From Candidatus Woesearchaeota archaeon (GTDB taxonomy: Archaea; Nanobdellota; Nanobdellia; SCGC-AAA011-G17; GW2011-AR20): a DNA stretch of 44,872 nucleotides. The translations under genes were made by a program, and so were the position numbers. Within the stretch, counting starts at the first letter, position 1, and the number at the start of each line of letters is the position of its first letter. The stretch spans positions 1-44,872 of the forward strand of contig JACOZR010000022.1 in the NCBI GenBank assembly GCA_016181245.1. The letters run 5' to 3'. Under the pieces are notes generated by a model. It saw only the letters and a program-made list of their open reading frames with translations. It ran no database searches and was not told where the DNA came from. Positions 39,003-41,228 of the stretch are shown in pieces.

Positions 39003-41228
39003 ATGGCAGATGTAGATGTTGTAAAGAGAGTAAGAGAGTTAATGAATAATCCTGAGCAGATTAGGAATATATGTACGTGTGCCCATATCGATATAACTTA
39101 ATAATTTACTACTTTTAAGTTACGACAGCATGGGAAGACGACATTTAGTGATAATTTGCTTTTAGGAGCAGGCATGATCTCTGAGGATTTAGCAGGTAAA
39201 CAGTTGTCTTTAGATTTTCATGAAGATGAGAAAGAAAGAGGCATTACTATTGATGCTGCTAATGTTTCTATGATCCATAAGTTGGCAGATAAAGAATTTT
39301 TAATTAACTTGATTGATACTCCAGGACATGTTGATTTTGGAGGAGATGTTACAAGAGCAATGAGAGCTTGTGATGGAGCTATTGTTTTAGTTTGTGCTGT
39401 TGAAGGAATAATGCCTCAGACAGAGACTGTTTTAAAACAAGCATTAAGAGAAAGAGTTAAGCCAATTTTATTTATTAATAAAGTTGATAGGTTAATCAAA
39501 GAAGTTAAGTTGACCCCTGAAGCAATGCAGCAAAGATTCATTAAGATTATTACAGATGTTAATAGATTAATTAAAAGTATTGCACCTGATGAGTATAAAG
39601 AGAAATGGCAGGTTAATGTTCAAGATGGAAGTGTTGCATTTGGAAGCGCTTTCCATAAATGGGGATTAAGCGTTCCTTATATGCAGAAACATGGAATTTC
39701 TTTTAAGGATGTGATTGAGGCTTATGTTTCTGAAAAGCAATCAGAGTTGGCGAAGAAAGCTCCTATGCATCAAGTTGTTTTAGATATTGTTACAAGACAT
39801 CATCCTAATCCAAGACAAGCTCAAGCTTATAGAATACCGAGAATATGGCAGGGAGATTTAGAGTCAAGTTTAGGAAAATCTTTATTAAGCTGCGATCCGA
39901 ATGGAGAAGTTGCGTTTGTTGTTACTAAAATTGTTGTTGATAAACATGCAGGAGAGGTTGCTGCGGGAAGATTATTTTCTGGAACTGTAAAACAAGGGCA
40001 AGAGGTTTATATGATTGGAGCTAAGAGAAGATTAAGAGCGCAGCAAATTAATATTTATAAGGGAGCACAGAGATTTCAGGTAGAAAGTGCTGTTGCAGGA
40101 AATATTATTGGGATTATTGGACTAAAAGATGCTTTTGCAGGAGAAACTGTTTCAAGTATCGACATGGAACCTTTTGAAGCTATCAAGCATATTTTTGAGC
40201 CTGTTGTTACAAAATCTATTGAAGCAAAGAAAGCAAGTGACTTGCCCAAACTAGTTGAAGTTTTGAGACAAGTTAACAAAGAAGATCCAAGTATTTTTGT
40301 TTCTATTAATGAAGAAACGGGAGAAAATTTAATAGCGGGAATGGGAGAGCTGCATTTAGAAGTTGTTGAAAACAGGATAAGAAAAGAAAAAGGAGTTGAT
40401 GTTAAAACTTCTAATCCTATTGTTGTTTATAGAGAATCAATACTGAAAAAATCTAGAGAAATAGAAGGTAAAAGTCCAAATAAACATAATAAATTTTACT
40501 TTATTGTTGAGCCAATACCAGATAATGTTTATGAAGCGATTAAAAGTGGAGAGATCCAAGATGGCAGGATAAAGAAAACCGACAGAGATCTTTGGGACAA
40601 ATTTGTTAAATTAGGATATGAAATGAAGGAAGCTAGAAGTGTTAAGCAAATATTCAATGGAAATGTTTTGATTGATTCAAGTAAGGGTATTGTTCACATT
40701 GGTGAAGTTATTGAATTAATCATGGATGGGTTTGAGCAGGTTATGAGAGAAGGACCATTAGCAAGAGAACCTGGTATTAAGATGGTAGTAAGATTGAAAG
40801 ATACTACACTACATGAAGATGCTATTCATAGGGGGCCATCACAAGTATTGCCTGCTGTTAGAGAATCAATAAGAGGAGCAATGGTTGATGCACAGGCAGT
40901 TTTGTTTGAGCCGTTACAAATTTTACAAGTAGATATTCCTGCAGAGTATTTAGGAGAAATTTCTAAATTAGCTGGAAATAAAAGAGGACAACTTTTAACT
41001 GTTGAACAAGAAGGCGAGCACATAACTTGTAAGATTAAATTACCTGTTGCTGAAATGTTTGGACTAAGCAATGATTTGAGAAGCGCTACTGAGGGCAGAG
41101 GAAGTTTCTTTGTTCTTGATCAGGCTTTTGAAAAGTTACCTAGTGAGTTACAAGATAAAGTGATTAAGAGCATAAGACAAAGAAAAGGTTTGAAGACTGA
41201 AACTGTTTCTGAATCTGAGGAGAAATGA
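39003..41228 (+). CDS. fusA: elongation factor aEF-2, split by a 36-nt intron (exon 1 39003-39092, exon 2 39129-41228)
   Basis: The ORF-track protein starts at [15 protein letters not shown] and lacks G1. Exon 1 reads [30 protein letters not shown]. Exon 2 resumes [16 protein letters not shown] in frame. DTPGHVDF, NKVDR and the diphthamide loop HEDAIHRGPSQ are present. The joined length is about 729 aa. Confidence 0.87.
39093..39128 (+). other. BHB-type mini-intron in aEF-2 mRNA
   Basis: The RNA is AUAACUUAAUAAUUUACUACUUUUAAGUUACGACAG with an in-frame UAA. It has a central helix AUCG/CGAC (one A.C mismatch), 3-nt bulges AU|A and AG|C, a perfect 8-bp inner stem UAACUUAA/UUAAGUUA and an outer helix CCCAU/AUGGG. 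Confidence 0.72.

Follow-up and report, generated by a model that had tools for sequence, protein, structure and literature searches.

An Interrupted P-Loop in aEF-2

How can an archaeon make elongation factor 2 from a gene in which stop codons split the P-loop? The question is raised by contig JACOZR010000022.1 of a Candidatus Woesearchaeota archaeon, whose positions 1–44,872, a single 45-kb stretch of 32.5% GC, were analysed whole and are called the window here. On its plus strand, the gene of archaeal elongation factor 2 (aEF-2) opens with an ATG at 39003 and reads through 30 codons (MADVDV...CAHID; exon 1, 39003–39092), is interrupted by 36 nucleotides (nt; ATAACTTAATAATTTACTACTTTTAAGTTACGACAG, 39093–39128) and resumes with CATGGGAAGACG (HGKTT; exon 2, 39129–41228). 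The insert separates the Asp and His codons of AHID/HGKT, the aEF-2 P-loop. In the frame of exon 1, ATAACTTAATAATTTACTACTTTTAAGTTACGACAG translates as IT, two stops and FTTFKLRQ, the stops being UAA at codons 3 and 4; the frame is the same on both sides of the insert and stays open from 39129 to the stop at 41228. We propose that 39093–39128 is very probably an archaeal bulge-helix-bulge (BHB) intron in the coding region of the aEF-2 pre-mRNA, on the evidence of its fold, its cut-site register, its conservation and covariation in relatives and the purifying selection on its exons, all read from sequence.

Excision of 39093–39128 yields an aEF-2 of 729 amino acids (aa), whose first 158 residues can be aligned gap-free with the solved archaeal EF-2 6q2d_C (E 1e-73), straight across the P-loop junction. 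The deletion register that restores Asp-His is unique, and the resulting junction of GAU with CAU encodes AHIDHGKT. A first-pass annotation of the window had put forward this layout, with the start at 39003, the end of exon 1 at 39092, the in-frame UAA, the GAU-CAU junction and a product of about 729 aa; re-reading of the sequence bore it out in every part. If nothing is removed, the first possible start of the large open reading frame (ORF) is a TTG at 39156, past the GKT of the P-loop. Because the UAA comes early and no downstream start supplies the P-loop, the gene would depend on splicing. Searches with the spliced protein returned Woesearchaeota/Nanoarchaeota (DPANN) proteins, of which the best full-length matches in the protein collection are 87–88% identical and uninterrupted. 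The nearest orthologue, locus L004 in genomic DNA, is 94.65% identical and also uninterrupted.

Comparison of codons with these relatives shows that both exons are under purifying selection. Exon 1 is intact (29–31 codons, with an ATG) in 11/11 intron-bearing loci analysed, and its last 25 codons differ between the window and locus L001 by 8 synonymous and 0 non-synonymous codon changes. Exon 2 has no frameshift or stop in 700 codons when set against L004.

The Insert and Its Flanks Fold into a Bulge-Helix-Bulge Motif

The RNA around the insert forms three helices. An outer helix (H1) of 5 base pairs (bp) joins CCCAU in the Ala/His codons of exon 1 (39082–39086, plus strand, as are all elements of this motif) to AUGGG in the His/Gly codons of exon 2 (39130–39134). 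A central helix (H2) joins AUCG in the Ile/Asp codons of exon 1 (39087–39090) to the intronic CGAC (39123–39126) through one A.C apposition and three Watson-Crick pairs. The intron interior closes into a hairpin (H3; UAACUUAA/UUAAGUUA, 39094–39101 with 39115–39122, the whole element spanning 39094–39122) of 8 bp with a 13-nt loop. Two 3-nt bulges, AU^A (39091–39093) and AG^C (39127–39129), lie on opposite strands, each 3' of its own central-helix strand, the placement that is also found in tRNA introns at position 37/38. All of these elements had been claimed before and match the sequence, and the minimum free energy structure that RNAfold returns for 39070–39150 is exactly this H1/H2/H3 two-bulge fold (z = −2.7).

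The junctions set by protein homology coincide with the position after the second residue in each bulge, so that cleavage is predicted after 39092 and after 39128. The first-pass annotation had placed the cuts by this rule, which is also the rule reported for cbf5 introns, where cleavage falls between the second and third bulge residues (PMC2738675). With the junction held where protein homology fixes it, 4/20000 shuffles of the insert gave three inner H2 pairs together with at least four H3 pairs.

Relatives Carry Different Inserts at the Same Nucleotide

Is the interruption peculiar to the window? Several database aEF-2 homologues are N-terminally truncated and begin MISEEL... or HGKTT, and we took as relatives the contigs of such truncated homologues plus 68 species-representative genome loci. 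The P-loop region was uninterrupted in 54 of the 64 fetched loci in which it could be read (a count made before later loci were added). Beyond the window, an insert at precisely the Asp/His codon junction is present in 13 Woesearchaeota-like aEF-2 loci, which makes 14 distinct loci in all. The inserts measure 30 nt in L002, L003, L048 and L152, 31 in L016, 32 in L001, L021 and L032, 36 in L063 and the window, 38 in L017, 39 in L015 and L155, and 40 in L153. Thus, they range from 30 to 40 nt, and 7 of the 14 are not a multiple of 3. An in-frame stop occurs within the first five codons in 11/11 translated aEF-2 introns and also in an intron of aIF2-gamma described below (12/12 mini-introns in total, usually at codon 3). 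The joint chance of such early stops, about 0.004 if the sequences are taken as independent, means that they exceed the expectation from composition. Because the lengths often break the frame and stops come early, the inserts cannot be translated, and the early stops may serve to limit translation of unspliced mRNA.

The inserts come from independent NCBI, JGI, ENA and Logan assemblies and differ in sequence while occupying the same nucleotide position. The flanking motif is kept, whereas the interior sequences show essentially no relationship to one another, not even those of the window and L001, whose proteins are 87% identical. In a neighbour-joining tree built from the C-terminal 300 residues, loci with an intron are dispersed, each with a close intron-less sister, as in the pairs window–L004 (94%), L016–L014 (96%) and L017–L008 (91%). 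Given this scattered distribution and these intron-less sisters, the introns must have been gained repeatedly, lost repeatedly and precisely, or both.

Pairing Is Maintained by Covariation and by Synonymous Codon Choice

Covariation in relatives, which the first-pass annotation had named as a check on the fold, was examined in an alignment of 12 sequences that were placed by junction distance alone, without fitting to the structure, and whose loops were replaced by a linker. The statistics rest on related sequences; with that in mind, standard pairs fill 87.2% of cells, compared with 27–39% when the partners are slid by 1–3 columns, double-sided changes occur in 7/13 pairs (27 cells), and 0/500 shuffles matched the score. 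The most telling position is an H2 pair between exon and intron, which is C-G in 7 sequences, U-A in 5 and broken in 0/12: here a synonymous Ile position covaries with the intron, AUC going with an intronic CGA (7) and AUU with an intronic CAA (5). In H3, compensatory changes were found across the relatives at 4/4 counted pairs. Consistent with this, RNAalifold run on a plain MAFFT alignment recovered H1 and a fully co-varying H3. The first H2 pair, A.C in the window, is commonly A.C, A.G or A.A in the relatives.

The outer helix lies entirely in exon codons, and codon choice at the positions that contribute to the motif differs between the two classes of loci. The Ala codon is GCC in 8/11 intron-bearing and 10/54 intron-less loci, the Asp codon GAU in 11/11 and 27/54, and the Gly codon GGG or GGC in 9/11 and 15/54 (Fisher p about 1e-3 for each); the second His codon is CAU in 11/11 compared with 34/54. 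An H1 of at least 4 bp can form in 9/11 intron-bearing loci and in 14/54 intron-less ones (Fisher p = 8e-4). Relatedness inflates these p-values somewhat; the intron-bearing lineages are nonetheless scattered over the tree. It is only in the insert-bearing genes that synonymous exon sites preserve the outer helix.

A Second Translation Factor Is Interrupted at the Homologous Site

The first-pass annotation had also drawn a parallel with aIF2-gamma, and the parallel holds up well. The aIF2-gamma gene of the window (21704–22969, minus strand) is interrupted at GHVD/HGKT, homologous to the aEF-2 site. Its exon 1 (22916–22969, minus; MEKESQPEVNIGLIGHVD) is followed by a 30-nt insert between the Asp and His codons (22886–22915, minus), predicted to be a BHB intron, and by exon 2 (21704–22885, minus), which reads HGKTTLTERL... 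to the stop. The minimum free energy structure is an exact BHB, with GCCA/UGGC as outer helix, a perfect 4-bp H2 (GUCG/CGAC) and bulges AU^A and UG^C. A covariance model trained on aEF-2 introns alone scores this insert at 52.8 bits (E 1e-13). The same model gives intron-bearing aEF-2 loci 49–74 bits, compared with 13–26 bits for intron-less ones, and in the window it finds two sites only, those of aEF-2 and aIF2-gamma, the next best scoring 11.8 bits.

Of the 80 metagenomic aIF2-gamma loci compared, 76 have no interruption; one (L072, a JGI contig) has an intron between Asp and His, and three are interrupted at another site. The 30-nt intron of L072 is identical to that of the window, the two genes sharing 86% protein identity and only about 85% DNA identity. 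In L078 (1047–1076), L080 (1044–1073) and L106 (934–962), an insert of about 30 nt interrupts the His codon of GHVD, 4 nt upstream. At this second site, the central helix is UUGG/CCAA, the outer helix has a weak 2 bp, and GHVD(H/N)GK is restored in frame by the canonical cut. A third position occurs in aEF-2 of L154, in which 33 nt (about 1620–1655, upstream of the called gene at 1701) sit within the Lys codon of HGK, with an H2 of AUGG/UCAU and an H3 of CCAGUU/AACUGG. L002, a close relative of L154, has its intron between Asp and His instead.

Elsewhere, P-loops are intact. The GHVDHGKS of the window's aIF5B (7723–9438) and aEF-1alpha (41992–43275) is uninterrupted, and a search of the other P-loops in the window and 150 loci (about 600 kb, by regular expression and covariance model) found 160/160 contiguous and no further intron.

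Are the P-Loop Codons a Homing Hotspot?

How did introns come to recur in so short a stretch? One view is that the P-loop DNA of translational GTPases in Woesearchaeota-like DPANN is a homing hotspot and that the mini-introns are mobile or endonuclease-associated DNA elements. Repeated gains would then have struck within about 15 bp (Asp/His junction and Lys codon in aEF-2; Asp/His junction and His codon in aIF2-gamma), with spread between the paralogues and interplay with LAGLIDADG endonucleases, either intein-borne or free-standing. In one form of this view, the intron would disrupt the endonuclease target and so protect the allele; in another, it would be co-converted with an endonuclease gene, as in collaborative homing.

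Many aEF-2 homologues carry a LAGLIDADG-domain intein between the Lys and Thr of HGKT, 9 nt downstream of the intron site and 2 nt from the L154 insert. Inteins at this point, with or without a LAGLIDADG domain, are present in proteins P0030, P0007, P0058, P0085 and P0101 and in loci L015, L017, L019, L020, L027, L052 and L063; P0007 is the protein most similar to the window aEF-2 (94% over the aligned part). Seemingly second inteins in L004 and similar loci were discarded, the extra-long matches being weak matches to the neighbouring aEF-1alpha. In L001 and L032, two distant intron-bearing lineages, free-standing LAGLIDADG-type ORFs lie directly upstream of aEF-2 (L001 153–1334, L032 145–1380). 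They encode 393 and 411 aa with 36% mutual identity and a C-terminal winged helix-turn-helix; that of L001 matches LAGLIDADG_3 above the Pfam cut-off, and both match the intein-endonuclease parts of NCBIfam models. An upstream endonuclease ORF was found at 2/10 intron-bearing and 0/52 intron-less loci, a weak association (Fisher p = 0.024, or about 0.04 by estimate with four later loci included).

Several findings are compatible with a hotspot: (i) the intron-less sisters, with the closest relatives of the window gene either bare (L004) or intein-bearing (P0007); (ii) the fit of the aIF2-gamma intron to the aEF-2 intron consensus; (iii) a mosaic structure in L152; and (iv) the endonuclease association. 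Other findings count against it. Both an intron and an intein are present in L015, L017 and L063. Beside the window aEF-2 we found no homing-endonuclease gene: the ORF immediately upstream (38410–38958) has no family match and is common to the intron-less L004 and L005. Nor was a co-conversion or foreign tract evident around the window intron in comparisons with L004, L005 and L001. On balance, we consider the hotspot view an unlikely account of how the introns are distributed.

Two side observations concern the same question. The L152 aEF-2 is mosaic relative to window positions 39003–41228, its 5' ~950 nt being ~75% identical and the remaining 1.3 kb ~91% identical; the 5' segment holds its own, different 30-nt intron, and the mosaic could be due to recombination or to chimeric assembly. 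Furthermore, the exon sequence at the site, AUCGAU (39087–39092 in the window), is a palindrome, so that the 3' end of the intron in L016 and L048 (CGAU/CGAN) resembles a duplicated exon end. Such an exon-like 3' end may reflect origin by insertion with target-site duplication.

A Proposed Splicing Pathway

What is the mechanism of removal? Pairing of exon 1 CCCAU with exon 2 AUGGG forms the outer helix, pairing of exon 1 AUCG with CGAC of the intron 3' end the central helix, and the intron interior the 8-bp hairpin. By analogy with archaeal tRNA, rRNA and cbf5 splicing, cleavage behind the second residue of each bulge (after 39092 and 39128) would be the work of EndA, the tRNA/rRNA splicing endonuclease; ligation of GAU to CAU by an RtcB-type enzyme would then give the AHIDHGKT P-loop and the 729-aa aEF-2. 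The predicted 30-mer across the spliced aEF-2 junction is TGTGCCCATATCGAT joined to CATGGGAAGACGACA. The 36-nt intron would come free, probably in the form of a small circle with the predicted junction ...GTTACGACAG to ATAACTTAAT... On an unspliced aEF-2 mRNA, the in-frame UAA at the third codon of the intron would end translation. The same mechanism would remove the 30-nt aIF2-gamma intron, with GGCCACGTCGAT joined to CATGGCAAAACAACC at the predicted spliced junction.

Several points weigh against splicing as we propose it. A BHB shape proves nothing alone, because such geometry is common by chance in 32.5% GC DNA: a permissive BHB scan of the window gave 896 matches, and a scan restricted to BHBs that merge ORFs was still noisy, with hundreds of matches, and was dropped as evidence. 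The first H2 pair is a mismatch here and in most relatives, which leaves three firm central pairs; the aEF-2 motif is a relaxed BHB, which the EndA of this lineage may or may not accept. Neither EndA nor RtcB is encoded in the window as judged by Pfam annotation of its ~40 ORFs. To our knowledge, EndA and RtcB are present in all archaea. A single 45-kb window also leaves room for a second, intact aEF-2 copy elsewhere. Lastly, a collection of 15 billion proteins contained 0 exact matches to eight spliced proteins (7 aEF-2, 1 aIF2-gamma) and no cDNA-derived or annotated joined form of any of them; therefore, these genes have apparently never been annotated as joined. In favour of processing by EndA, DPANN EndAs have an L3 loop that is associated with a broader substrate range (PMC5829648).

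Other Ways to Explain the Insert

Could the insert leave the RNA by other means, through a different nuclease-ligase pair or by self-cleavage? The imperfect central helix with its A.C apposition leaves some room for this. However, EndA substrates have precisely this geometry, with the same 4-bp spacing and a cut that follows the second residue of the bulge. Inserts of 30–40 nt are also far too small to be group I/II ribozymes, and the aEF-2 insert has no Rfam match at gathering score or E ≤ 1. We regard removal by other enzymes as quite improbable.

Alternatively, the gene might be decaying into a pseudogene, or might have a second copy beside it, its insert being junk that is never removed. 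The possible second copy mentioned above would suit this explanation, and public gene calls at these loci are indeed truncated proteins. A decaying gene should hardly be under the strong purifying selection seen in exon 1 against L001 and in exon 2 against L004, and the same interruption recurs in 14 lineages with compensatory changes, aIF2-gamma following the same pattern. A pseudogene is thus very improbable.

Instead, ribosomes might pass over the insert, through programmed bypassing (hopping) of the T4 gene 60 kind, through frameshifting or through read-through. A stop soon after the take-off position and a stable hairpin give the locus a superficial likeness to gene 60. Yet the codons for take-off and landing do not match: neither the window nor the relatives have a second GAU ahead of CAU. 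Bypassing also has no use for what is conserved here, namely two bulges and the pairing of exon with intron in the register of a BHB, and the 3' end of the insert takes part in the covariation of the central helix. Bypass is hardly credible on these grounds.

Nor do we give much more than passing credence to two polypeptides, in which a 32-aa N-terminal peptide and a 690-aa fragment started at TTG 39156 would reassemble. Gene callers do report the 690-aa ORF, and Nanoarchaeota are known for split genes (PMC3655853). The split would fall within the GxxxxGK[ST] P-loop, however, and a start at 39156 comes after HGKTTFSDN and leaves the fragment without GKT; in relatives, the insert shifts the frame and no conserved start codon lies near HGKT.

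Finally, an assembly or sequencing artefact, conceivable for an uncultured AT-rich source whose assemblies can be chimeric (L152 looks mosaic), is next to impossible given the differing inserts at the same nucleotide in independent NCBI, JGI, ENA and Logan assemblies and the identical aIF2-gamma intron in the independent JGI contig L072.

We also rejected assignment to known classes of intervening sequence. Inteins are stop-free in-frame ORFs with an N-terminal Cys/Ser and C-terminal His-Asn splicing blocks; this insert has 36 nt and two in-frame UAA codons, and the true inteins of relatives lie 3 codons downstream. Group I/II self-splicing introns have a ribozyme core of hundreds of nucleotides and do not fit 36 nt without an Rfam match. 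Membership in the cbf5 intron family was rejected on account of the hosts, which here are aEF-2 and aIF2-gamma of Woesearchaeota-like archaea.

Genes around the Two Proposed Introns

The window also encodes GrpE, DnaK, DnaJ, aIF5B, S6e, GyrB, GyrA, aIF2-gamma, aCPSF1/FttA, a proteasome subunit, RpoE, S24e and aEF-1alpha. No other interrupted gene was apparent among the ~40 Pfam-annotated ORFs. ARAGORN found no tRNA gene in the window, so there are no tRNA introns for comparison within it, and a comparison with Rfam likewise gave no known RNA family there. A promoter and terminator scan, run with a sigma-70 model ill-suited to archaea, detected nothing in the window.

Two further ORFs deserve mention. 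Immediately upstream of aIF2-gamma, a 405-aa ORF (23006–24223, minus) contains a reverse-transcriptase domain (RVT_1, 31.7 bits); its retron-type NCBIfam matches are below cut-off, and it is not upstream of aIF2-gamma in L072. To link it to reverse-transcriptase-mediated intron loss or gain would be pure speculation. Just upstream of gyrB, a 638-aa ORF (13930–15846, plus) has NUMOD3, HNH and several helix-turn-helix matches, and by its domains looks like a free-standing homing endonuclease.

Relation to Known Introns

The closest parallel is the cbf5 BHB intron of Crenarchaeota (Watanabe 2002; Yoshinari 2006; Yokobori 2009, PMC2738675). Like the introns proposed here, it lies within a protein-coding region, is cut between the second and third bulge residues, has partly exonic helices and a highly variable interior, is patchily distributed with gain and loss, and is mis-annotated by gene callers. 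Unlike cbf5, which encodes a pseudouridine synthase and whose introns belong to Desulfurococcales/Sulfolobales, the hosts here are the translational GTPases aEF-2 and aIF2-gamma of Woesearchaeota/Nanoarchaeota-type DPANN; the proposed introns occur in two paralogues, at three or more positions, in one short P-loop stretch that also hosts inteins.

Archaeal tRNA/rRNA BHB introns, both of the hBHBh' and of the relaxed kind, have the same geometry and, for tRNA, a similar size range, and presumably the same EndA/RtcB processing. They differ in that the substrate here would be an mRNA with helices within constrained codons, whose splicing decides whether an essential protein can be made. Fujishima et al. 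reportedly proposed in 2010 that tRNA introns have transposed to new sites in Thermoproteales. The BHB intron of Haloferax volcanii HVO_1309 (PMC7714728) likewise makes an mRNA an endonuclease substrate outside Crenarchaeota, but it lies in the 5' untranslated leader of a single gene in a single species, whereas the inserts described here lie in the reading frame.

The P-loop inteins of archaeal GTPases/ATPases, as at HGK/T of aEF-2, occupy the same ~20 bp of DNA, are patchy and restore the P-loop after expression. They are, however, translated, excised from the protein and equipped with LAGLIDADG domains, whereas the mini-intron has stops and no coding capacity. In phage collaborative homing (PMC3984707), there is, as in L001 and L032, an ORF-less intron at a conserved site and an endonuclease gene, here upstream; the phage intron is a group I intron, and the type of intron here is different.

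In open-access literature and bioRxiv, the mRNA BHB introns on record are those of cbf5 in Desulfurococcales/Sulfolobales and that of the Haloferax HVO_1309 5' leader, as a 2020 paper states explicitly. For coding regions, papers from 2018–2025 cite only cbf5, and a 2025 paper still cites only cbf5 work. In the same literature, we found no mRNA introns of aEF-2, DPANN or Woesearchaeota, and no described precedent for introns at several P-loop positions, in two paralogues, sharing codons with inteins. The aEF-2 and aIF2-gamma introns would thus be additions to the very few known in archaeal protein-coding genes, adding two essential translation factors in another superphylum and at least 14 aEF-2 lineages.

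What would follow for these organisms? Standard gene callers truncate a universal phylogenetic marker at these loci: public databases hold forms of 677–696 aa and lack the joined ones, and the truncated aEF-2 calls affect DPANN annotation, completeness estimates and phylogenomics. The recurrence of introns and inteins within ~20 nt makes intron gain and loss, and the link to endonucleases, directly testable. If the splicing proposed here is true, these reduced-genome organisms need their tRNA-splicing machinery to synthesize both aEF-2 and aIF2-gamma.

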